Counted from the stretch's first letter, positions 1 through 10,398 are shown. The stretch is 64,000 bases of DNA from an uncultured virus (IMG/VR IMGVR_UViG_3300035698_018446) (IMGVR_UViG_3300035698_018446), one strand, 5' to 3'. A program made the numbers and translations. Notes: generated by a model from the letters alone, not told the origin.

Positions 1-93
1 GAGGAGGGTGATGTACCGTTCCACATGCTCTAAAACAGGGAAAACTACGTTGCAGATCTCGATCCCGTCAATCATCACGATAACCTTGAACAT
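1..93 (-). CDS. hypothetical protein (partial, runs off the window start)
   Basis: ATG at 93 on the minus strand after a purine-rich AAGAGAG; open to position 1 (MFKVIVMIDGIEICNVVFPVLEHVERYITLL...). Confidence 0.45.
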   Translation of the reverse strand, partial: MFKVIVMIDGIEICNVVFPVLEHVERYITLL

Positions 94-258
94 TTGATTC
101 TCTCTTTAACTAGGCACCGTTTCTTCCGGACTCCCGAACCTTTCGGGACTCTGTGCAACCGTCATCCTCATCACACGGACACATACGCAGGGGATCTCAA
201 ACCTGCAAGAATTCTTTTTAAAATTTTCTAAGTGTAGGTTAAACATTAGGAGGTCCCC

Positions 259-765
259 ATGTCTGCTGTCTTTGTTCGTGGTACGATTGTTGGCCGTGGT
301 GATCTAGATCTCTATACGGTGGATAACGCAAATCAGCCCGTCAATGTCTTCGAGATCACCTACGCGATCTATGATGCCACGACGGGTATTGACGTGCTTA
401 TTGGTAATGCACAGCGGGCTCCTATCAATCCTGACGTGGGCGAGTATTACGCGGCATTAGAGATCCCCTCCAATGCCCGCCCCGGTTTGTATCGTCTCCG
501 CTGGACTTTTAAAGAAAATGCCCTGTCTCTCTCCGTTCTCGTGGTAGAGGAGTTCACTGTTCTTGTGGAGGAAGCGATCAATCCGCTTAGTTTGTATTCC
601 CCCACGGTCCTCGATATGGTCCGTAGGCTCCGTATCCTACTCCGGGACAACTGTATTGATGGTGACGAGATCGTGAGAATCCGCTACCCTCAAGAGGGGG
701 GAGGGTATACGGAAATGAATGTATCTTTGCAAGACCTATTTCGAGGCATCAAACATGCACCCTGA
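259..765 (+). CDS. probable virion (neck/adaptor-like) protein, N-extein (131 aa) fused to split-intein N fragment (37 aa)
   Basis: AGGAGG SD; ...LRILLRDN followed by intein block A-like CIDGDEIVRIR (Cys codon 652-654); ORF stops 37 aa later. The virion role is inferred from context only. Confidence 0.75.
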   Translation: MSAVFVRGTIVGRGDLDLYTVDNANQPVNVFEITYAIYDATTGIDVLIGNAQRAPINPDVGEYYAALEIPSNARPGLYRLRWTFKENALSLSVLVVEEFTVLVEEAINPLSLYSPTVLDMVRRLRILLRDNCIDGDEIVRIRYPQEGGGYTEMNVSLQDLFRGIKHAP

Positions 766-907
766 ATTACAACCCCTTTTGGATCGGTATGGTCTCACCT
801 TGGCTCAGTTGCAAGCTGTTATGCCGGGAAAAAAGGCTGGGGATTTCAGGTGTGGACGGAACGTGATTATTTGCAGGAGGTGTTATCATGTGGGAAAAAG
901 TGATTGA
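755..907 (+). CDS. 50-aa Cys-containing micro-ORF between the split-intein halves
   Basis: GAGG then ATG at 755, overlapping the upstream stop; MHPELQPLLDRYGL...CGRNVIICRRCYH; overlaps the next start. Confidence 0.4.
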   Translation: MHPELQPLLDRYGLTLAQLQAVMPGKKAGDFRCGRNVIICRRCYHVGKSD

Positions 908-1754
908 AGCCTTTCAAGATGGGACACTGGAGATCCTATCCTACAACGAACAGGGCGCTGCGGAGTGGTGTCCTTTACAAGACGTGCATAGAAACCCTAT
1001 GCCCCCCATGCAAGACCTCTTACGCATCCACACAAGCTCAGGTGCGAGTCTTAGCGTCACTTCAGAGCATAGGGTTTATGAAGATCCCTTGTCCTGTGTA
1101 CCTGCGAAGGATCTAAAGGTGGGGAATAGGTTATCCGATGGGTCTTGTATCGTCAATATTGAGACAAGGCCCCTACCCCTTCACGTTTATGATGTCACTG
1201 TGGCGAATAATCATAATTTGATTCTTCTTAATTCCGGAGTGGCCGTTCATAACTGCCCCGACAGAAACTATCGTTTCAGGCCCCCCACGCACGAAGATAC
1301 TATTAACCGTTTCAATCGTGTCTTTGGATACATTTGGGAAGATTATGAGCTTGTCGAATACATGGAGCGCGGTGTTGACTTCGTGAATCTCTACCCCCCT
1401 GAAACTCAATTTAACTCTATTGACATCATGGCTCAGGCGAAGCCCGCTTGGAGGCAAATGATTCTCATGGCCGCCATGGCTCACGCCCTTATGGCACTGT
1501 CAATAAATTGGACCTCGGAGGAGTTTTCGTACTCTATCGGTGGGATTTCATTAGACATCTCAAAATCGTCTCAGTACGAATCGTTAAAAGGGAACGCGGA
1601 ACAACAGCTCGACAAAATGCTGGAAGCCAAGACTCGGACCGTTAAGATCATGAGAGGACTAAAGCAGAGCAGGTACGGCTTAGGTGTACGTTCCGCATTC
1701 GGACCAGTTTTGGGTGGTGGAGTGGTCTCCCCTAGAAAATACGTTGGCGTGTGA
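888..1754 (+). CDS. split-intein C fragment (122 aa) fused to C-extein (166 aa) of the same probable virion protein
   Basis: Own strong SD (AGGAGGT-N6-ATG); intein block B (SVTSEH, TxxH), block F (VYDVTVANNHNL) and block G (VAVHN/C; Asn 1251-1253, +1 Cys 1254-1256). Confidence 0.85.
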   Translation: MWEKVIEAFQDGTLEILSYNEQGAAEWCPLQDVHRNPMPPMQDLLRIHTSSGASLSVTSEHRVYEDPLSCVPAKDLKVGNRLSDGSCIVNIETRPLPLHVYDVTVANNHNLILLNSGVAVHNCPDRNYRFRPPTHEDTINRFNRVFGYIWEDYELVEYMERGVDFVNLYPPETQFNSIDIMAQAKPAWRQMILMAAMAHALMALSINWTSEEFSYSIGGISLDISKSSQYESLKGNAEQQLDKMLEAKTRTVKIMRGLKQSRYGLGVRSAFGPVLGGGVVSPRKYVGV

Positions 1755-1811
1755 ATCTTGTCAACATGAAAAATAGAGAAACTTTTTAGATCACGACCCG
1801 TCTCTGTGTTG

Positions 1812-1990
1812 GAGCGCGAACCCCTAGTGATCGTAGAAACCCTAGGAGGTCCGCGATCCCATAAGGTGTTGAGAATATTAGGTTCAATTAGAAGGTCGAT
1901 TTCCGTTGACGCCCTAAGTGATCTTGATTAGAAAGGTTCGCGGATGAGGGGTCTGAACATGGCCTGCTAGGCCAAGTTTAGACCCCCACC
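1812..1990 (+). promoter_or_regulatory. CRISPR leader with sigma70-like promoter and 5' hairpin
   Basis: GCGCGAACCCC...GGAGGTCCGCG and GGTTCGCG motifs reminiscent of type I-C leaders; TTGACG(1906-1911)-N17-TAGAAA(1929-1934); hairpin 1948-1986. Confidence 0.7.
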
Positions 1991-2171
1991 CTTTAGATCC
2001 CTCTTTGGAGGGGTCTTGGATTGAAACCGAGATTTAGGTGCAAGAAATCTGTGGTCATAATGCTTTAGATCCCTCTTTGGAGGGGTCTTGGATTGAAACA
2101 TGTCCAACTCGCCGTCTCGCATCGCGGTGGTCCACTTTAGATCCCTCTTTGGAGGGGTCTTGGATTGAAAC
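1991..2171 (+). CRISPR. CRISPR mini-array, 3 identical 37-bp repeats and 2 spacers of 35 bp, type I-C-like, no cas genes in window
   Basis: CTTTAGATCCCTCTTTGGAGGGGTCTTGGATTGAAAC at 1991, 2063 and 2135; 9-bp stem AGATCCCTC/GAGGGGTCT followed by the 11-nt TGGATTGAAAC handle. Confidence 0.95.
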
Positions 2172-2239
2172 TCATCATGAGCGCGGCGGGGATAGCGTGG
2201 TATTAGATTTCGTCCGCCCTATGTGGACTGATAAATCTA

Positions 2240-3895
2240 TTACCCATCCACAATAGCCTGAAGAGCTGCGATCATGTTACTCGGAAGTTTCGGTGACATG
2301 AGGTTTTCATCCACAGCCCTCAAGAAAAGCTCGGCAAGCCCTACCTTAGATTTGGAGCGGTTGAACTCTTTGAGGTAGTACCCATCATTATTAGGGTAAT
2401 TGTTCTTGTCAATACTCGTATGAAGCAACGACCTGTATTCTATCGCCAATTTAACGTCTAGCGCATAAAAATTGGTCCCCAAAATCAAGCCGTAACCTTG
2501 ATAAATGGTCCATGTGTTGAAGTTGTACTCCCTAGCGAGGTACATCTTGATCTTGGGTGCAGTCTTCGGGGCTTTCTTCACCCCTAAATTGATGAAGATG
2601 TCCTCCAAACTAACATAGTTCCCCAACCCATATATCCTTTCTGTAGGAGTCCAAATAGCAGGTAGAGCGTAGATTGTAGGATTATCGGGCTTGGTCAAGT
2701 TATGCCACTGCAACGCGGCCTTCAACCCCTTCGTGACATCTGTGGGCGAGATTACACCCTTCTTCATAGGTGTAGTGCTTACTGATAGACTCCAAATACG
2801 ACTATCTTTTCCACCCATAATATTATTGACGATCTCGTGCTTGCACGTCACATAAACAACGTTGGAGCCGGACGTACCGCAGGCGACGAAGCCATAAGTG
2901 TATTTAGAGCTTTCATCACCACTGTAGTTTCCGGGAGCGTCCACATCAGCCGTGCGCAATATCCATGAGATATTGGGGGGAAGGGTGACGGAAGCTAGAG
3001 CTTGCTCAAAAGTGACGGTTTCTCCCTTAGGCGGCTGGTAGTAAGACTTCTCAGCTTTGGGGGGTTCTTGCGAATCAGCACCCGCTAAGAAATCGGATTG
3101 GGACATTGAGCGTCCCCTCTTCGCTAAGAGCGGAAGTCCCTTCGAGAAATCCCAAACTTGAGAGATGGAGGCTACCCTAGGGTTCGCGGGCTTGGTCAGC
3201 GAGGCGCTCGCCAAGATAGAGGCTAGACCTTTTTGGATGGATGCGGCGGAAGTGTCAGGATCAAGGGCTAGCTTGGAAGCGTAAACCTTTGCTCTCCACA
3301 GATCCTCATCAGGGGTTGCAGGGTCCGTATAGGTGTTGTATGTATGGACCATGAGAAGAAAGAAATGCTGATTACTAGAGACACCATAAGCTACATTACC
3401 AAATTCTTGCTTCTGAACCTCGTTATCACTCCCATTTTTACTTGACCACACTTGCTCCGTCAGGAATACCCACTTCACGTCCGAAGGGATATTAACCTTT
3501 CCTATCGCTTCTCCGATAGTGACCACGGTCTTGGGTACCGTCTTAGGTCTAGGAGGCTCCTGATCGGGCCTAGGGGAGGGTCTAGGGGAGGGCCTAGGGG
3601 GAGCCTGAGAGGGTCTTGGGGGTGCGCTACGCGCGTACCCTCGCGAGGGTGCGCGTACCCCGTCAAGAATGTCTTTAGCGGCATTCAGCTCCACCATCTT
3701 ATCCATATCACCACCGAGATCAGGGTGGTGCTTACGGGCGAGCTGCCTCCAAGCGGACTGCACCTCTGATTTCGAGGGGGAAGCGCCAGACTGGAATCCT
3801 AAGGTCACGAGAGCATCATCCCAAGTGAGGTCAACGTTGGCGGCTTGGCGCGCGAGCCATGCCATGACGATACGACGGGTAGCGGAGCGGTTCAT
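2240..3895 (-). CDS. J-domain (DnaJ-like) protein with Pro-rich linker and a tandemly duplicated unknown domain
   Basis: N-terminal J-domain with HPD motif (AWRQLARKHHPDLGGD...ELNAAKDIL); SD GAGGTG; two copies of a VTxxEA...IPxxVxW...TKPxNP domain. Confidence 0.8.
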   Translation of the reverse strand: MNRSATRRIVMAWLARQAANVDLTWDDALVTLGFQSGASPSKSEVQSAWRQLARKHHPDLGGDMDKMVELNAAKDILDGVRAPSRGYARSAPPRPSQAPPRPSPRPSPRPDQEPPRPKTVPKTVVTIGEAIGKVNIPSDVKWVFLTEQVWSSKNGSDNEVQKQEFGNVAYGVSSNQHFFLLMVHTYNTYTDPATPDEDLWRAKVYASKLALDPDTSAASIQKGLASILASASLTKPANPRVASISQVWDFSKGLPLLAKRGRSMSQSDFLAGADSQEPPKAEKSYYQPPKGETVTFEQALASVTLPPNISWILRTADVDAPGNYSGDESSKYTYGFVACGTSGSNVVYVTCKHEIVNNIMGGKDSRIWSLSVSTTPMKKGVISPTDVTKGLKAALQWHNLTKPDNPTIYALPAIWTPTERIYGLGNYVSLEDIFINLGVKKAPKTAPKIKMYLAREYNFNTWTIYQGYGLILGTNFYALDVKLAIEYRSLLHTSIDKNNYPNNDGYYLKEFNRSKSKVGLAELFLRAVDENLMSPKLPSNMIAALQAIVDG

Positions 3896-4016
3896 GAGAT
3901 CACCTCGGTGTTAAGTAAGCACTATCGTCTCATTTTTATTAAAAAATCTTGAGCTTTTCTTTTCCGAATATCTATGCTTTGATGCGCGGGGGAAACACAC
4001 AATCAGGAAGGCACAC

Positions 4017-4439
4017 ATGATCAAGGATATGTCGGGTTGGATTCGGGAGATGGAGTCCATGGGGGGTTGTTACATATCGAAGAAAGACCAGAAAGACCTC
4101 TGGTTATGGTTGGGCACGATAGACCCTGAGCAACGCCTGTATTGGATGAAGCGTGTGCTTTCGCTTCCTCTCTCCAATAGCGTGATGACCTTCACGGCGG
4201 TTCAAAACATCTCGAATTATTCGGGTCACATGACCCCGGACTTCTTCAGCCTCACGCCCTACGCCGAAGCGGCGTTTTACGAACAGAAGGCGCGTGACGG
4301 TGAGACGATTATGGATTCCTTGGCCGCGAGCTTCATCATCCTCACTCCGTTTTACAAGACCTTGTGGGATGTCCGATCCGGGAGTACGCGGATAAGGGGA
4401 TCACATGCGGAGTGCTCTGGGAGCGTGAGCTACCCGTAG
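4017..4439 (+). CDS. hypothetical protein, C-terminally truncated paralog of 8445-9125
   Basis: Closely matches the N-terminal ~120 aa of 8445-9125 up to KTLWDVRSG, then diverges and stops early. Confidence 0.65.
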   Translation: MIKDMSGWIREMESMGGCYISKKDQKDLWLWLGTIDPEQRLYWMKRVLSLPLSNSVMTFTAVQNISNYSGHMTPDFFSLTPYAEAAFYEQKARDGETIMDSLAASFIILTPFYKTLWDVRSGSTRIRGSHAECSGSVSYP

Positions 4440-4450
4440 GCGGATAGACC

Positions 4451-4530
4451 TTGACGCCTCAAGTGATCTTGAGTAAAAAAGTTCGCGGATGACGGGGATG
4501 AACACGGCCTGCAAGGTTGGGTTCATCCCC
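4451..4530 (+). promoter_or_regulatory. second copy of the CRISPR-leader promoter and hairpin
   Basis: TTGACG(4451)-N17-TAAAAA(4474), GTTCGCGGATGA and hairpin GGGGATGAAC/GTTCATCCCC; homologous to 1906-1986. Confidence 0.8.
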
Positions 4531-4535
4531 ACATC

Positions 4536-4572
4536 TTTTAGCTCTCCATTAGGCGGGCGCTTGGATTGAAAG
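4536..4572 (+). ncRNA. solitary diverged CRISPR repeat unit (candidate crRNA mimic / Racr)
   Basis: TTTTAGCTCTCCATTAGGCGGGCGCTTGGATTGAAAG, 27/37 identical to the array repeat with the handle retained (TGGATTGAAAG); no second repeat follows. Confidence 0.65.
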
Positions 4573-4601
4573 AAACAGAATAAACAAACCGAAGCAGAGA
4601 T

Positions 4602-4994
4602 ATGAATCTCAAGAAAAAAGAAAAAGCTGATATTTTTGCTAGGATGTGCGGTCTATGTCCTGAGATTGATGCAGAGTTGCTCTTAATGCCTCCTGTTGAA
4701 GTACAAGGTCCAACACACAAGAATCCCTATATGGCTTCTTGGCGCTTGACGTTTGGCGTGAGTCGGCGTTCAACAGGATTCTGTGTGAGACCTGAAACAA
4801 TTGAACAAGCGATCTCGGACCTTGTTATACGAAAGGGAGACAGCATCATGATGCTCTTTGTAGTGCCCGAAGGCTCTTCAAAGATAAGCCCCCTGACGCA
4901 CACTTTTATCATGCGACTACCCTTGAGCAAAGAAGACTGTGCAAAGCTTCCAGAGGGCCTGCTCGAAACGCTCAAGCCCCTTATGGAAGGTTAG
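4602..4994 (+). CDS. hypothetical protein
   Basis: 130-aa ORF directly downstream of the solitary repeat. Confidence 0.6.
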   Translation: MNLKKKEKADIFARMCGLCPEIDAELLLMPPVEVQGPTHKNPYMASWRLTFGVSRRSTGFCVRPETIEQAISDLVIRKGDSIMMLFVVPEGSSKISPLTHTFIMRLPLSKEDCAKLPEGLLETLKPLMEG

Positions 4995-5182
4995 ATGCGC
5001 ATCTTGACGCGTATATGATCCTCTGTGTATGTGATGATTCCTGCGGATAGAAGATAGCACAGCTCCAGATACAAAGCTTCCTTATCCTCTTCCGGGTGTG
5101 CCTCCCATAAGGCTTGGACCAAAGCGCGGGGTGTCTTGGGTTCTTTTTGGAGTTCCCGACGGATTCTGTCTTCTGTGTTCAT
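4991..5182 (-). CDS. small protein, possible winged helix-turn-helix
   Basis: MNTEDRIRRELQKEPKTPRALVQAL...LCYLLSAGIITY; helical pattern ending in an LxxxGxIxY wing-like motif. Confidence 0.45.
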   Translation of the reverse strand: MNTEDRIRRELQKEPKTPRALVQALWEAHPEEDKEALYLELCYLLSAGIITYTEDHIRVKMRI

Positions 5183-5194
5183 GGGCAATCCTAG

Positions 5195-5228
5195 TGTTTT
5201 GTAGTGGTTACGCAACCACTACAAAACA
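5195..5228. repeat. perfect 15-bp inverted repeat with 4-nt spacer between two divergent small genes
   Basis: TGTTTTGTAGTGGTT-ACGC-AACCACTACAAAACA. Confidence 0.9.
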
Positions 5229-5266
5229 ATCTAGCACAAAACTTTCCCATCAGATACGCAAACGAC

Positions 5267-5479
5267 ATGATCTTAGGATCGTGTGACGATCACTTAAAGA
5301 AAGTACTATGCACTATGATGCTCAATGAAGATAGTGCGCAGGAAGACCTTATGCGTAACATTCTAAATAGATGCCCCGACATGATTACGATTGAAGTGGG
5401 CGGATTGCTAAGGCAGATTCAATCTTTAATGATAGAGGGCGTTATAGGTTATGCATTGTCTTATACAAAATTGAAATAA
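5267..5479 (+). CDS. small protein, possible winged helix-turn-helix
   Basis: MILGSCDDHLKK...IQSLMIEGVIGY; same LxxxGxIxY ending as 4991-5182. Confidence 0.45.
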   Translation: MILGSCDDHLKKVLCTMMLNEDSAQEDLMRNILNRCPDMITIEVGGLLRQIQSLMIEGVIGYALSYTKLK

Positions 5480-5529
5480 CTTCTAATAATTCTGCACCGT
5501 GGAGTTACGGTTTAAGAAAGAGGTTGGCG

Positions 5530-6858
5530 ATGTATGCATTTGATAAGGGTAATTGGGGCGTAGTAACGAACACGGTGCAACGGTATACGTCCCTGCACTT
5601 CGATAGTTCAAAGCTGCAAAGTATCTTAGCAAAGATGGTCTTTTCATGGCAAAGAGAACACCTCAAGGATCGTATTGATCGCTCTTACTTCATTCCCACT
5701 CCCGTAGTGGTGAAAGTCCTCAAGAGTCCAGAAGCTATCGAAGTAAAGACGGGCATAGAGATTGTCTTACCTGACGAGTTCGCAAAGCCCGACAACGTTC
5801 AGTATCAGGTGACTCTCACATTCGCGTTGCTCAGCGATAAGAAGACCTTTGAGATACCATCTTGCGAAGTGCTGATGGAGGGTAAAGGGCCTTTCACTTT
5901 CACGGGCGCAGAGATCAAGAAGAAGTTCAAGGTGGTGCTTACGCAGCCAGCTCAGAACGATGTTGACGGGTGGCGCAAGATGTTGCTACAGATGATGATG
6001 GGAGTGCATGAGACGGCGCAGGATTTCTTGGACAAGAAAGTTGGCCCCGCGCTGGCGAAAGACATTCAGCAAGGTCATGGCGGCGCGAAAGCATTGCCTA
6101 CAAATGCTGGCCGTCCTAGTACAAAACAGCAGACGCTGTTTGCTTCAAACAAAAAGGAGATTGGAATGAATCGTGAATTGGTGAGAAAAGGATTTGCACA
6201 TTTGGTGTCGAAAGTTCCGGCGGTCATTGCGCAGGACATGATGCATATTGAGAGTTACATGAAGCTGGCATCAAAGCCCGCGATGTCTCAAGACGCTCAG
6301 GCGAAGAAAGCTGTGTTTGCTTTTCTCCCAGCGGCGAAGAAAGCGGCGTTCAAGGATTATCGCGTCCCCATCCAAATCGCTCAAGGTTTATCTGAAGAGT
6401 ATATCGGTGGTAACGAGTATGATGGTCAGGATGTATGGTCGATGAGCATTGCGTACAAGATTCCCGGATCTTATTTCTTCGATGATCAACAGGCCGAACA
6501 CGAAGTTGAGCGCGCAATACGCAGAATTCCAAACCTGAATTTCGACGGTCTTGAGGTGCAGGGTCAAGATGAGAACCAGATATTGGTGATGTCTTTCTCT
6601 GTGTTCGGGGCATCGAATCGTGGTGTCACGGCTTCCGTTGTTATGAATCGTAAGAGTCTGTACGCTTTGATCCTCAAGACGCTACCCCTCAAGTATAGTG
6701 CAATCCATTATGATATGGCAATTTTTGCTCAGGTACTTCTAGGTGTGTTGGGGAAGCCTAATGTGTTCAAGACTGCGCAAGAATGGTCTGAGCTAGAATG
6801 GGTTGAAATGATCTTGAATCACTCGCGTCACTATGAAGGTCTCGCATTTCTGGAGTAA
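5530..6858 (+). CDS. hypothetical multidomain protein, possibly internal virion protein
   Basis: Long ORF, SD AGAGGT before ATG 5530; second in-frame SD and ATG at 6166. Confidence 0.7.
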   Translation: MYAFDKGNWGVVTNTVQRYTSLHFDSSKLQSILAKMVFSWQREHLKDRIDRSYFIPTPVVVKVLKSPEAIEVKTGIEIVLPDEFAKPDNVQYQVTLTFALLSDKKTFEIPSCEVLMEGKGPFTFTGAEIKKKFKVVLTQPAQNDVDGWRKMLLQMMMGVHETAQDFLDKKVGPALAKDIQQGHGGAKALPTNAGRPSTKQQTLFASNKKEIGMNRELVRKGFAHLVSKVPAVIAQDMMHIESYMKLASKPAMSQDAQAKKAVFAFLPAAKKAAFKDYRVPIQIAQGLSEEYIGGNEYDGQDVWSMSIAYKIPGSYFFDDQQAEHEVERAIRRIPNLNFDGLEVQGQDENQILVMSFSVFGASNRGVTASVVMNRKSLYALILKTLPLKYSAIHYDMAIFAQVLLGVLGKPNVFKTAQEWSELEWVEMILNHSRHYEGLAFLE

Positions 6859-6866
6859 AGGTTTTC

Positions 6867-7163
6867 ATGCACCTTGATTTCTCAGATACGGGGCACATTT
6901 TTCGTCACATCGATGGTCTGTTAAAGATCGGGGATTATGCGACGGTAGACGATCTCTTGCTCGTCATGTCTCTTGATGACTTTCAATCTACCATTCGTAG
7001 CCATCCTCATGGCGTGTTCGTGGCGCTCATGGCTTCTGCGCCTAGAAGTGCTAGACCGTATCTGTCGCACCTCTCTAAAGCGGTAGATAACATCGACCGG
7101 GTACTAGACAGTATGGGTTGGAGCGCGGAAGAGCGCCGATCTATCTTGAACGCATATCGATAA
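6867..7163 (+). CDS. hypothetical protein
   Basis: 98-aa ORF between the upstream gene and a terminator. Confidence 0.6.
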   Translation: MHLDFSDTGHIFRHIDGLLKIGDYATVDDLLLVMSLDDFQSTIRSHPHGVFVALMASAPRSARPYLSHLSKAVDNIDRVLDSMGWSAEERRSILNAYR

Positions 7164-7207
7164 AGAAAACCCCCTGCTTGATACACACCAAGCAGGGGGT
7201 TTTCTTT
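7162..7207. terminator. bidirectional intrinsic terminator
   Basis: AAAGAAAACCCCCTGCTTG-N8-CAAGCAGGGGGTTTTCTTT between convergent genes. Confidence 0.85.
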
Positions 7208-7220
7208 TCGGGAGAATTAC

Positions 7221-8324
7221 TCATGAGACCAACGCGGCCTTTAGAAGATCCAAAACTTCCATAGGGGGTTTCGTTTCAAAGTAATTCTTTTCGATGAGGT
7301 TAATCATGATTTTACAGATATATGCTTTGTTTTTAATCTTATCAATGTTTTTGCGGATAAACCCTCTCGATGGATTACTTCTCGTGACGATGGCAGAAGC
7401 CATTGTCCAGTATAAATTCTTGTTAGGTACCGTCTCCCAATCCAACTTCCACGACTTTTCTCCTATAAAGATATAAAGCTCTTTCTGCCCCTGATTGTAG
7501 GCGGCAGGTACGGCCAGATCTACCTGAAGCGAACCGTCTGATGTCGGTGTTGGCCCCTTCTTGAGCCCCCTGACTACAAAGAATTCCGACATATTCTCAC
7601 CACGCCCACGGTGCTTCGTTTGCTCAGAAGGCGTCCAATCTGCATCTAACTCATGCACGGAAGGATTACCCGGCTTAGTAATTTCAGCCTGAACCATGAG
7701 AGCCTTGATCGCTTTCGTAGCGGCGGCGACATCGAGCTTCCCTTTCTTGAGGGCTCCCGTTTGGAGGATGCACGACCACACGAAAGATTCTCTACTTTCA
7801 TAAATAGAATAGGTCTGGAATTCCTTTGAAGACTTCACAAGCAGAACAACCATTTGAGTGCTGGTTTGCCCTAGAGCGACATAGCCGCTGGAATTGTGAG
7901 ACCCTTCGGATCCTTCATAGTTGTTCACAGCGCGCAGTTCTTCCGTAATGAAAATCCAATTGACTCCCGATGGAATGGAGACATTACGGAAGGCTTCTGC
8001 GAAGGTCACAGTTTCGCGAGAAGTAGCGTGCGGTGACGTGTCGTAATCTTCTTGTGTTGGTACGCGCCCGCGCGAGGGCGCGCGAACGCCATCAAGGATG
8101 TCCTTAGCTGCGTTAAGCTCCACCATCTTGTCTACATCGCCCCCAAGATCCGGATGATGCTTGCGCGCGAGCGCGCGCCACGCGGATTGAACTTCTGCCT
8201 TGGATGGCGACATTCCAGCGTGAAATCCCAAAGTACTAAGGGAGTCTTCCCAAGAGAGATCCACGTTAGCGGCTTGGCGCGCCAGCCATGCTCTCACGAT
8301 ACGATATGAAGCTGTACGATTCAT
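7221..8324 (-). CDS. J-domain (DnaJ-like) protein, paralog of 2240-3895 with a single copy of the unknown domain
   Basis: Start reassigned to MNRTASY (SD GAGGT) by homology; HHPDLGGD motif; N-terminal ~85 aa highly similar to 2240-3895. Confidence 0.8.
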   Translation of the reverse strand: MNRTASYRIVRAWLARQAANVDLSWEDSLSTLGFHAGMSPSKAEVQSAWRALARKHHPDLGGDVDKMVELNAAKDILDGVRAPSRGRVPTQEDYDTSPHATSRETVTFAEAFRNVSIPSGVNWIFITEELRAVNNYEGSEGSHNSSGYVALGQTSTQMVVLLVKSSKEFQTYSIYESRESFVWSCILQTGALKKGKLDVAAATKAIKALMVQAEITKPGNPSVHELDADWTPSEQTKHRGRGENMSEFFVVRGLKKGPTPTSDGSLQVDLAVPAAYNQGQKELYIFIGEKSWKLDWETVPNKNLYWTMASAIVTRSNPSRGFIRKNIDKIKNKAYICKIMINLIEKNYFETKPPMEVLDLLKAALVS

Positions 8325-8444
8325 TGAATTACCTCTTGAATATCTTGACAAATCTAGGAATGTACTTTTTTTAAATGAAATTGAGAGTCTTGCCATTCTT
8401 CTTAAAGTAGGGGTATACTTCTTATAGGACATGAGGAGGTCAAC

Positions 8445-9125
8445 ATGCTCGATATGTCAGGATGGATTCGAGAGATGGAATCGATGGGAGGCGCTTATGT
8501 GTCGCAGAAAGATCAGAAAGATTTGTGGCTGTGGTTAAGCACGTTGGACCCTGAGCAGAGGTTGTACTGGTTTAAGCGTGTCTTGGCATTTCCGCTCTCT
8601 ACCCGTGTGCTGACTTTTGCCACTGCGCGTAAATCGAGCCCTCAAATGAACCATGTCATGCCCGACTTCTTCAGTCTCACGCACTATGTACAACATGCTT
8701 TTTCCGGACAATATGCGGAAGACGGCGAGACGATACAAGACTCTTTGGCGGCGAGCTTCATTGTCCTGAGTCCTTTTTACAAGACCTTGTGGGATGTGCG
8801 ATCTGGAGCCATTCAGTGTGGTGATTATAGGGGTACCCTTCAGGGCGGCTCTTATTACGAGGGATCTCCTATCATCCAGAGATCCTATGTATTCGCGGCA
8901 AGCCTTTTGGATATTCTATCGCCCTGTATCGAGAAACATCCCGAGGTATCGGAGCTTATCAAGAGGGGTGAGCCAAACCCCAATCAAGCGGTTCCTACCC
9001 CGCTGCGAGTTTACATCAGGGAGCGGCGACCAATAGCAGCTATTACTTACCGTCTGCTCATGCAGCAATGCGTAGAGTACACGGATCTTAAATCTGTCAA
9101 GACGTTAAATACGAAGGTAAGATGA
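8445..9125 (+). CDS. hypothetical protein (full-length paralog of 4017-4439)
   Basis: SD GAGGAGGT; DMSGWIREMESMGG...DQKDLWLWL shared with 4017-4439. Confidence 0.75.
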   Translation: MLDMSGWIREMESMGGAYVSQKDQKDLWLWLSTLDPEQRLYWFKRVLAFPLSTRVLTFATARKSSPQMNHVMPDFFSLTHYVQHAFSGQYAEDGETIQDSLAASFIVLSPFYKTLWDVRSGAIQCGDYRGTLQGGSYYEGSPIIQRSYVFAASLLDILSPCIEKHPEVSELIKRGEPNPNQAVPTPLRVYIRERRPIAAITYRLLMQQCVEYTDLKSVKTLNTKVR

Positions 9126-10132
9126 AAACACCACTAAATACGATCTATCTTGGTCCTTGTTTGGCTATGCTGGAGAGTCTTGAAGACAACTCAGTAGACT
9201 TGATTGTGTCTTCTCCCCCTTACAACATAGGGAAAGAGTATGAGCGTAAGCTGGATCTTGATGTGTATTTGGGGCAGCAGCTCCTTGTGTTGATGGAGTG
9301 TCTACGCGTGCTAAAGAGTGCTGGGTCGCTTTTTTGGCAAGTGGGGTCTTCCCTTATGGACGGGATTACTATCCCTTTAGATGTACCTTTTTTTCAAATG
9401 CTGTGTGACATGGGTATGCGCCCAAGAAATCGCATTATATGGGTTCGTCAACACGGGTTACATTCCACTTTGAAATTCTCAGGCAGGCATGAGACGGTCT
9501 TGTGGTTCACGAAGACAGATGACTATTTCTTTGATTTAGACCCTATTCGTGTGCCTCAGAAGTATCCCACCAAGCGATACTTTAAGGGACCAAAGAAGGG
9601 AGAGCTGTCCTGCAACCCTAAAGGTAAAAATCCGGGTGATGTGTGGGCATTTCAAAATGTCAAACATAATCACGAAGAGCAAACGATGCATCCCTGTCAA
9701 TTTCCAGAAGCTATGATTGAGCGAATAATGTTGAGTACGACAAAGATTGGAGACGTTGTGTGTGATCCCTACATGGGGGTGGGCACCGTAGCCGTAGTGG
9801 CAAGAGATCACGGTAGGGCTTTCGTAGGCGCGGAATTGTCACCTGAATATCATAGTGTTGCTCTGCATCGTTTGAGCGGGCAGCCCCAAGAAGGTGGTTC
9901 TTTCCCAAACCTCAAAACCTTACGAGATTATGTGGAAGCTACGGGCCTTCCAATAGAGAATTATAAGTTCTCAAGACAGGTCGGAAAAAAGGCTTCCCCA
10001 CGATCATCCTCGAAAATATATGAAGAACCCCACCATCTCCAGATCTTATTTGACAATTTGGTGGATGAAGATCCCCTTGAGGAATCTTCTAGTGACCAAA
10101 AAATTCCATCGTTATTTGATTACGAAGATTGA
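9122..10132 (+). CDS. site-specific DNA methyltransferase (N4-C/N6-A, beta class), resembles the M.BglII family; orphan
   Basis: Motif IV SPPY precedes motif I DPYMGVGT; HNHEEQTxHPCQFP and FPNLKTLR segments recalled from BglII-type MTases; no endonuclease adjacent. Confidence 0.9.
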   Translation: MKTPLNTIYLGPCLAMLESLEDNSVDLIVSSPPYNIGKEYERKLDLDVYLGQQLLVLMECLRVLKSAGSLFWQVGSSLMDGITIPLDVPFFQMLCDMGMRPRNRIIWVRQHGLHSTLKFSGRHETVLWFTKTDDYFFDLDPIRVPQKYPTKRYFKGPKKGELSCNPKGKNPGDVWAFQNVKHNHEEQTMHPCQFPEAMIERIMLSTTKIGDVVCDPYMGVGTVAVVARDHGRAFVGAELSPEYHSVALHRLSGQPQEGGSFPNLKTLRDYVEATGLPIENYKFSRQVGKKASPRSSSKIYEEPHHLQILFDNLVDEDPLEESSSDQKIPSLFDYED

Positions 10133-10208
10133 CCGACTTTGTTTGAATCGAATCTCTCCTGCCGATCTTCATGTGTTTCGTCCTGAATTCTAGTCAAAAA
10201 GATGTTTC

Positions 10209-10247
10209 AATGCTTACGCTCATATAGGAGCGTAGGCATTTCTTTTT
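10209..10247 (+). terminator. intrinsic terminator after the methyltransferase
   Basis: AATGCTTACGCTC-N6-GAGCGTAGGCATT followed by TCTTTTT. Confidence 0.7.
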
Positions 10248-10398
10248 ATGAAGTGAAATTATGAGGGACTTGTTGTGTTCACATTCACGGATCGGAAGCG
10301 GTTAAGAGTCTCGTCTGCCTTCGGAGGGTAAACATCAACCGCGATGCGTCCGGCGATTTTTACTTTGAAATATCTAATCCCGGAATGAGAGCTTGAAA

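Follow-up and report, generated by a model that had tools for sequence, protein, structure and literature searches.

In the type I-C CRISPR scheme, repeat RNA folds into a hairpin with an 11-nt 3' overhang and is cut at the stem base, and Cas5c recognises the base of the stem, the cleavage site and the 3' overhang (first UGG) and not the loop or the 5' overhang, as far as the available part of PMC8524198 describes it. Solitary repeats placed behind promoters have been validated as RNA anti-CRISPRs, or Racrs (Camara-Wilpert et al. 2023, PMC10651486). In the accessible text of that study, RacrIC1 is an I-C solitary repeat co-transcribed with a protein gene, and RacrIF1 acts through its hairpin without a 5' handle. 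The same text describes a database of 17,823 repeats and the requirements of SRUFinder, which are at least 90% identity and 90% coverage, no repeat within 100 bp, an intergenic position and a promoter within 250 bp upstream. The crRNA-like regulators form another group, in which, according to the available portion of 10.1101/2023.03.10.532045, the first pseudo-repeat conserves mainly the bases of the 5' handle. Viral Cracr RNAs include I-C examples and often involve two-spacer arrays (10.1101/2024.10.29.618823, likewise available in part). CreA/CreR/Cracr RNAs are expected to carry, behind the spacer-like part, either a terminator or a second pseudo-repeat that retains the 3' handle, and to match a cas or toxin promoter with at least nine PAM-proximal nucleotides.

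We analysed a 64-kb stretch of viral DNA, called the window below, which comes from a very large tailed phage. Its genes code for a protein with a tail-sheath domain and a connector-like protein, for GroEL, Lon and GyrB, and for an SNF2 helicase, a methylase and an actin-like protein. The stretch is present in DNA runs labelled as salt-lake metagenome, X1 and X2 among them. Related viral records of 41-113 kb are estimated to be 9-25% complete, which suggests genomes of several hundred kilobases. As an observation in its own right, the 2046-aa protein encoded at 20745-26885 matches a tail-sheath family in its last ~350 residues and carries a very long N-terminal extension.

Near its beginning the window carries a cas-less mini-CRISPR array behind a leader (Table 1). 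The three repeats (1991-2027, 2063-2099 and 2135-2171) are all identical, and each consists of 4 nt, a 9-bp stem, a 4-nt loop and the 11-nt UGGAUUGAAAC. The predicted fold (-14.8 kcal/mol, z -2.98) leaves this 11-nt tail unpaired and abutting the stem, so that the repeat has the stem-loop followed directly by an 11-nt overhang (UGGAUUGAAAC/U) expected of type I-C. Its last 11 nt are also the ends of published I-C repeats from Xanthomonas oryzae and Legionella pneumophila, as given in the accessible parts of those sources. Judged on these sequence features, the repeat architecture is type I-C-like, a hairpin plus an 11-nt overhang. None of the 55 window ORFs matched the PADLOC models for core Cas proteins, a count that covers the window and not the rest of the genome, and no Cas family was found among the 30 window ORFs scanned with Pfam. 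With no Cas gene among the 55 ORFs, the array must use Cas proteins from the host or from an unseen part of the phage genome. A matching host array would have repeats ending in CTTGGATTGAAAC beside cas5c, cas7, cas8c and cas3.

The two spacers gave no match longer than 12 nt in 11 related loci plus three whole records (463,446 bases), a set of distant relatives with 63-69% nucleotide identity to the window in common genes, and only marginal matches to phage records (E at least 0.02). Nearly the whole leader is taken up by a long hairpin in two parts, which begins a few bases past the likely transcription start and may stabilise the 5' end of the pre-crRNA.

Table 1. Coordinates of the leader, repeat and gene features discussed in the text, counted from the first base of the window.
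Feature	Position	Strand	Details
Lineage-specific island	1755-10392		8.6 kb, between the connector-like gene and the SNF2 gene
Leader of mini-array, copy 1	1893-1990	+	98 nt
Promoter-like blocks, copy 1	1907-1912 and 1930-1935	+	TTGACG, 17 nt, TAGAAA; not called by consensus scan
GTTCGCGGATGA, copy 1	1936-1947	+	
Leader hairpin, copy 1	1948-1986	+	-30.8 kcal/mol, z -6.95
Cas-less mini-CRISPR array	1991-2171	+	three 37-nt repeats and two 35-nt spacers
Array spacers	2028-2062 and 2100-2134	+	35 nt each
Duplicate A	2240-4439		DnaJ-like gene 2240-3895 (-) and truncated 140-aa gene 4017-4439 (+)
Second leader copy	4438-4535	+	73/98 identical to copy 1
Promoter-like blocks, second leader	4452-4457 and 4475-4480	+	TTGACG, 17 nt, TAAAAA
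GTTCGCGGATGA, second leader	4481-4492	+	
Hairpin, second leader	4494-4530	+	-25.9 kcal/mol, z -4.77
Solitary diverged repeat	4536-4572	+	27/37 identical to array repeat
Would-be 11-nt crRNA 5' handle UGGAUUGAAAG	4562-4572	+	10/11 identical to that of the array
Stretch in the place of a first spacer	4573-4607	+	35 nt: 29-nt A-rich 5'UTR and start of ORF 4602
Orphan gene ORF 4602	4602-4994	+	130 aa, headed by second leader
Duplicate B	7221-9125		DnaJ-like gene (probable start 8324, -) and full-length 226-aa gene 8445-9125 (+)

An earlier note on this DNA had proposed that the -35/-10 promoter, GTTCGCGGATGA and leader hairpin of the array recur further downstream and are followed at almost the same spacing by a single diverged repeat. 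The recurrence is borne out by the identity of the two leaders over their 98 nt. A repeat finder paired 1893-2026 with 4438-4571 (134 nt, 75%), and ungapped alignment of 1893-2027 with 4438-4572 gave 100 identical positions of 135 (74%), against a mean of 50% and a maximum of 57% in 200 shuffles; being ungapped, the alignment shows the spacing to be identical. The homology ends exactly at the last base of the repeat (4572), and the flanks of the two copies, 47% identical over 56 nt upstream and 42% over 72 nt downstream, are both at the shuffle level. GTTCGCGGATGA has exactly two sites in the 64 kb, at 1936 and 4481. The word promoter stands only in part: TTGACG-17-TAGAAA/TAAAAA is conserved between the copies, but a sigma-70 consensus scan called no promoter there, the -10 block lacking its final T. 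We regard the conserved promoter-like core of the second leader as a candidate promoter. The mismatches between the copies are spread unevenly, leaving three intact 12-nt runs, AAGTGATCTTGA among the promoter-like blocks, GTTCGCGGATGA in the area of the probable start and CTTGGATTGAAA across the cut site and handle; when the 35 mismatches were placed at random, three such identical runs arose in 1.6% of cases (P=0.016).

The leader hairpin keeps 16 of its 17 pairs between the copies despite 14 differences in 47 nt, with three double compensatory changes and three one-sided compatible ones (in the pair table of the second-leader hairpin, 16/16 are counted as paired). Under random substitution 10.2 pairs would be expected, and at least 16 were kept in 0.05% of simulations (P=0.0005). 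The G-U pairs of the hairpin are compatible only with a plus-strand RNA, an argument that the leader is transcribed and structured in each copy. Taken at the level of sequence comparison, this points firmly to selection on the second leader as an RNA-level element, one that now heads a protein gene. Searching the window with a covariance model of the leader returned the two known copies only, all other matches lying on reverse strands or at E of at least 0.08. No Rfam family reached its gathering score anywhere in the window, and the leader hairpin has no Rfam family. That the hairpin might be an intrinsic terminator was considered and rejected, as the terminator scan did not call it and no U-run follows it.

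The solitary repeat behind the second leader was grouped by the repeat finder with the three array repeats, in agreement with the identity that had been reported for it, and TTGGATTGAAA has exactly four sites in the 64 kb, three in the array repeats and one at 4561-4571. Its mismatches do cluster in the stem as claimed, with eight of the ten at repeat positions 7-24 (the stem-loop); the basal pairs 5-26, 6-25 and 7-24 are kept, and the upper stem and the loop are changed. Pair 7-24, A-T in the array, is C-G in the lone repeat, which is the compensatory change that had been pointed out. The change is there, but it comes with no sign of a maintained stem: 5/8 pairs are kept versus 5.06 expected by random substitution (P=0.68), or 6/9 versus 5.68 in a nine-pair count (P=0.56). 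With stem pairs kept at chance level, a single compensatory pair is not evidence that the stem has been maintained. Consistent with this count, the minimum free energy of the lone repeat (-7.6 kcal/mol, z -0.07) was equalled or bettered by 94 of 200 shuffles. The favoured hairpin lies 2-3 nt out of register, the in-register structure reaches -4.7 kcal/mol, and the in-register pairs have a probability of ~6% in the repeat alone and ~0 in context.

The 3' part of the lone repeat is the better kept one. Positions 25-36 (CTTGGATTGAAA), spanning the cleavage site and the handle, are identical at 12/12, which upholds the description of the handle as intact except at its final base, where C has become G at 4572. 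For the 11-nt handle as defined beforehand, 10/11 identical positions have P ~0.18 at 74% identity by a hand calculation, and the 12/12 run has P ~0.03 and was noticed after the fact. Retention of handle bases, 10/11 in the lone repeat, is the pattern reported for the first pseudo-repeat of crRNA-like regulators. Over their whole lengths, repeat and leader have diverged to a similar degree (27% and 26%).

By its surroundings the repeat is solitary. It is intergenic, between ORFs 4017-4439 and 4602-4994, the 98 nt upstream of it being leader, and in 4573-4760 matches to the full repeat or to its halves were at chance (0.96-3.97 matches expected among 188 positions at the observed scores). Its identity to the phage's own array repeat, the only cognate repeat available for comparison, is 73% and falls short of the at least 90% of SRUFinder. 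The Rfam CRISPR-DR families gave no match for the lone repeat even at E<=10, and weak matches for the array only.

The lone repeat is separated by 29 A-rich nt (4573-4601) from the ATG at 4602, exactly as the earlier note had it, and its structural reading as a whole holds: the leader recurs, a single diverged repeat with a handle intact but for the last base follows it, no further repeat comes after that, and an ORF lies immediately downstream. If the 35 nt after the repeat are counted as a guide, the ATG occupies guide positions 30-32. This stretch has no match above chance elsewhere in the window, nor any in 463 kb of related phage DNA or in the fetched loci. No second pseudo-repeat was found within 188 nt 3' of the lone repeat, where the best scores are at chance; two candidate remnants inside ORF 4602, CTCAAGA at 4608 and GTCCTGAGATTGATGC at 4657-4672, both had chance-level scores and were discarded. 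A scan of 1700-5300 found no plus-strand terminator before 5158. Further on, a perfect 15-bp inverted repeat with a 4-nt loop (5195-5228; DNA fold -16.3 kcal/mol, z -6.9) was observed between two divergent small ORFs, 4991-5182 (-) and 5204-5479 (+); such a structure might serve as an operator or as a bidirectional terminator.

ORF 4602 is a plausible gene. By codon usage it is the best of the six frames (-0.019 versus -0.188), and it has a weak Shine-Dalgarno sequence. Contigs of runs X1, X2 and X3 cover 4430-4956 with zero differences, although one of these runs may be the source sample. One credible distant homologue was found, P0005, with 38% identity over 101 aa (library-wide E 1.9e-10), and no other relative among 1.84 billion representatives. 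P0005 is a 221-aa protein cluster of unknown function that shares a domain of ~100 residues with ORF 4602. Two low-complexity eukaryotic proteins among the three matches of the exhaustive search were dropped, and a locus fetched with P0005 was left out as marginal (30% over 48 aa). A word-indexed protein search gave no match, and no family, fold or annotation was found for the ORF: its AlphaFold model has a pLDDT of 35.6, structure Atlas matches stayed under 0.8 with TM under 0.5, and the one PDB match covered a 24-residue stretch only.

The second leader lies within a larger duplicated arrangement. The truncated 140-aa gene corresponds to the first 122 residues of the 226-aa gene at 64% identity and stops where the second leader begins. 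The order along the window is leader and array, DnaJ-like gene, truncated gene, leader and lone repeat, ORFs 4602-7163, DnaJ-like gene and full-length gene, an order that, read from the sequence, matches a tandem duplication that began upstream of the leader and had its other end within the small gene. The junction in this model is unproven because the 56 nt between the truncated gene and the second leader match neither side. The paralogue pairs are saturated at synonymous sites (pS 0.73-0.74, with third codon positions 41-48% identical), and the promoter-bearing intergenic region of the divergent pairs is 56% identical between the duplicates, where the shuffle maximum is 57%. With saturated neighbours and barely alignable intergenic DNA, 74% identity in a non-coding module implies purifying selection, provided that the module is equally old. 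Within the duplicated genes we also observed that the 551-aa DnaJ-like protein (2240-3895, -) has a proline-rich linker after its J-like domain and carries two versions of its middle-to-C-terminal region, since residues 121-270 and residues 292-547 align to one and the same part of the 403-aa paralogue.

That proviso is insecure because a third leader-plus-repeat copy exists. It was found in contigs of runs X1 and X2, with 24 differences across 1813-2027, and is flanked on either side by unrelated sequence; the window does not contain it, and the X1 contig is 2495 nt long. Its promoter-like core and GTTCGCGGATGA are unchanged, and two hairpin pairs are broken. In its repeat, C stands at position 7 opposite an unchanged T at 24, which shows that the basal pair 7-24 is not always kept. 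This copy sits either elsewhere in the same phage genome or in a co-occurring relative. Its existence shows that the leader-repeat module can spread on its own, and a later arrival of the module would leave its age and the strength of constraint uncertain; gene conversion could also keep identical patches. A one-repeat homing cassette was considered and rejected, as the sequence 3' of the lone repeat matches neither the intact paralogue nor relatives.

The module belongs to a region that the relatives found lack. Through the connector-like gene, 11 viral loci were found (39-86% identity), and for ten island ORFs (2240-10132, among 23 window proteins tested) none of these loci held a homologue. 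In the closest relative found, L075, the SNF2 homologue begins ~240 nt after the connector-like gene, without the island. Together these two results define 1755-10392 as a lineage-specific island. Besides the two leader units it contains ORFs 4602-7163, both copies of the DnaJ-like/small-gene pair and an adenine DNA methylase; five of its ORFs are orphans, and it looks like a variable accessory or counter-defence region. Aside from this, the first ~122 residues of the connector-like protein (888-1754) include a Hint/intein-like segment that scores below the Pfam cut-off; eight of the 11 relatives align only from residue 122 on, as if the N-terminal part were an insertion that a minority of the relatives carry. 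In L075, pieces of the connector-like gene occur in a different order.

Searches for the module or its neighbours in other genomes were largely negative. In the 158,425 bases of the 11 loci the leader covariance model had no match, and no ATTGAAA-ending repeats in array form were found there. Five whole related records, which as fragments (9-25% complete) give weak evidence, held no leader-model match, no handle 11-mer and no homologue of the DnaJ-like gene or ORF 4602. A blastn search of window positions 1-8000 against phage records found nothing. The DNA pattern scans need exact matches, and relatives with a single change are missed by them: the leader core pattern occurred in no viral and no metagenome contig and the repeat 24-mer in no viral contig, a repeat 18-mer occurred at eight loci in species genomes (one match each, no array), and the pattern GGNGGGNNCTTGGATTGAAA occurred at 58 metagenome loci (one match each, no array) and in no viral contig. 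One of these metagenome loci, L048, was set aside as a hairpin between converging reading frames. A protein search with the 226-aa gene returned itself only, and searches with the DnaJ-like gene and with ORF 5524-6858 turned up no viral locus.

The reading that we tentatively put foremost is that the lone repeat still engages Cas proteins, as a decoy and/or as a Cas-dependent 5'UTR of ORF 4602. In this reading, 4438-4572, a second copy of the leader-plus-first-repeat module from the phage's own cas-less I-C-like cassette, would have retained its leader as a working transcription start. We infer that the promoter-like core would start an RNA a few bases before the stable 5' hairpin and that this RNA would run through the half-decayed repeat into the orphan gene. 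Host Cas5c would bind, and perhaps cut, at 4561/4562; after a cut, the mRNA would begin with a crRNA 5' handle, onto which Cascade subunits could load, and both the 5'UTR and the start codon would lie under the 35-nt guide footprint. The outcome would be that host Cas proteins are soaked up, or that expression of ORF 4602 is tied to the CRISPR status of the host, or both. What favours Cas engagement is that the kept positions coincide with the reported determinants of Cas5c and resemble the first pseudo-repeat of crRNA-like regulators, and that solitary repeats behind promoters are validated RNA anti-CRISPRs. It is disfavoured by a stem at chance level and a fold at shuffle level and out of register, by the changed last handle base, the unremarkable handle statistic and the low identity, and by a third copy that lacks basal pair 7-24, along with the missing promoter call. 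The lone repeat may, as was proposed from the start, function as an RNA anti-CRISPR or crRNA mimic, and Cas5d cleavage controlling ORF 4602 was offered as an alternative to this. The accompanying idea that the phage both exploits and modulates host type I-C does not deal with the difficulty that a decoy against I-C would also blunt or disable the phage's own I-C-dependent mini-array. The more specific version, in which a Cas5c cut would give ORF 4602 an mRNA with a crRNA 5' handle and Cascade would cover the 5'UTR and ATG, we consider unlikely. If true, the phage would titrate I-C Cascade subunits and at the same time switch an island gene by host CRISPR activity, using a protein-coding transcript on a CRISPR leader and not a small decoy RNA.

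A serious competitor, to which we give slightly less credence than to Cas engagement, is that the promoter and leader are live and the repeat is dead. The leader would then drive or stabilise the ORF 4602 mRNA, and the repeat would be a relic without a Cas role whose 3' end stayed intact by chance, gene conversion or 5'UTR constraint. Selection is demonstrable for the leader hairpin and not for the repeat stem, the repeat folds no better than its shuffles and is far below the 90% identity criterion, and a real gene starts a short distance downstream, all of which suit this explanation. It must explain, however, why the 12 nt of cut site and handle are kept as well as the promoter blocks are, and an unrelated constraint falling on just the positions reported for Cas5c would be a coincidence. 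Less probable than any of the foregoing is a crRNA-like RNA of the Cracr/CreR type, in which the handle and the sequence from 4573 onward would guide Cascade by partial match and silence a host promoter, that of the cas operon or of a CRISPR-guarding toxin. The kept handle bases recall the first pseudo-repeat in the available text of 10.1101/2023.03.10.532045, and the two spacers of the phage array recall the viral I-C cases of 10.1101/2024.10.29.618823, where two-spacer arrays are frequent in the part available. The unit lacks, however, a second pseudo-repeat within 188 nt and a terminator before 5158, its guide would be the 5'UTR and start of an ORF, and no target was found in the window, related phages or fetched loci. 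Least probable, and in our view very unlikely, is a fully decaying remnant, with 4438-4572 the non-functional leftover of a more recent duplication or insertion that is drifting neutrally. The equal divergence of repeat and leader fits such drift, and the module does copy itself, as the third copy indicates, so that the age of the second copy is not fixed. The hairpin covariation and the uneven mismatches are, however, not neutral patterns, and the location of the block, just where the truncated paralogue ends, suggests that it is as old as the silent-site-saturated duplicates.

Phage mini-arrays, solitary repeat decoys and viral crRNA-like repressors have already been described, and they cover most of these readings. 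What is unusual here is an origin by duplication of the phage's own leader-array module, a covarying leader hairpin that matches no Rfam family, and a handle-only remnant placed as the 5'UTR of a gene. Nearly all known phage solitary repeats match host repeats almost perfectly, and it was through this similarity that they came to light. This locus shows how a solitary repeat unit can arise when a phage's own leader-array module is duplicated, and which parts survived long divergence, namely the promoter core, the covarying 5' leader hairpin, the stem base and the handle. If the Cas-engaging reading is right and the remnant still engages Cas5c, degenerate mimics that keep only the handle form a class overlooked by similarity searches, and a CRISPR leader serves as the expression module of a protein gene. 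If the remnant no longer does so, the locus documents, with a date, how an array decays in a very large phage, and it warns that not every lone repeat should be taken for an anti-CRISPR.

Set beside the described systems, the locus shows both likenesses and differences. According to the accessible text of PMC8524198, PMC8406640 and PMC5071653, type I-C repeats are 32 nt long, with 2 nt, a 7-bp stem, a 5-nt loop and 11 nt; the phage array repeat, at 37 nt, exceeds this length and its stem is longer, and in the lone repeat the stem is interrupted and the final base is G. Like the virus-borne mini-CRISPR arrays of PMC11656645, as far as the available part describes them, the parent array has two spacers, no cas genes and a phage as its carrier; it differs in that its spacers gave no match in the related phages searched or in phage records, and the derived unit has one repeat and zero spacers. 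With CreA/CreR and Cracr, as presented in the portions available, the unit shares a degenerate repeat with 5'-handle bases followed by a spacer-like stretch, but in the phage neither a second pseudo-repeat nor a terminator follows, a search of the window, related phages and fetched loci gave no promoter target, and what stands in the spacer position is an ORF's 5'UTR. The likeness to the Racrs in the accessible text of PMC10651486 lies in a lone phage repeat that is intergenic, has no cas gene nearby and has a promoter-like site just upstream. Those units are at least 90% identical to a genuine CRISPR repeat with the same fold, whereas the phage lone repeat has 73% identity to the array repeat of its phage and a weakened hairpin. 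In comparison with RacrIC1, the phage repeat stands upstream, not downstream, of its gene and carries a duplicated array leader, and in contrast to RacrIF1, which has no 5' handle, it is the handle that the phage lone repeat has kept.
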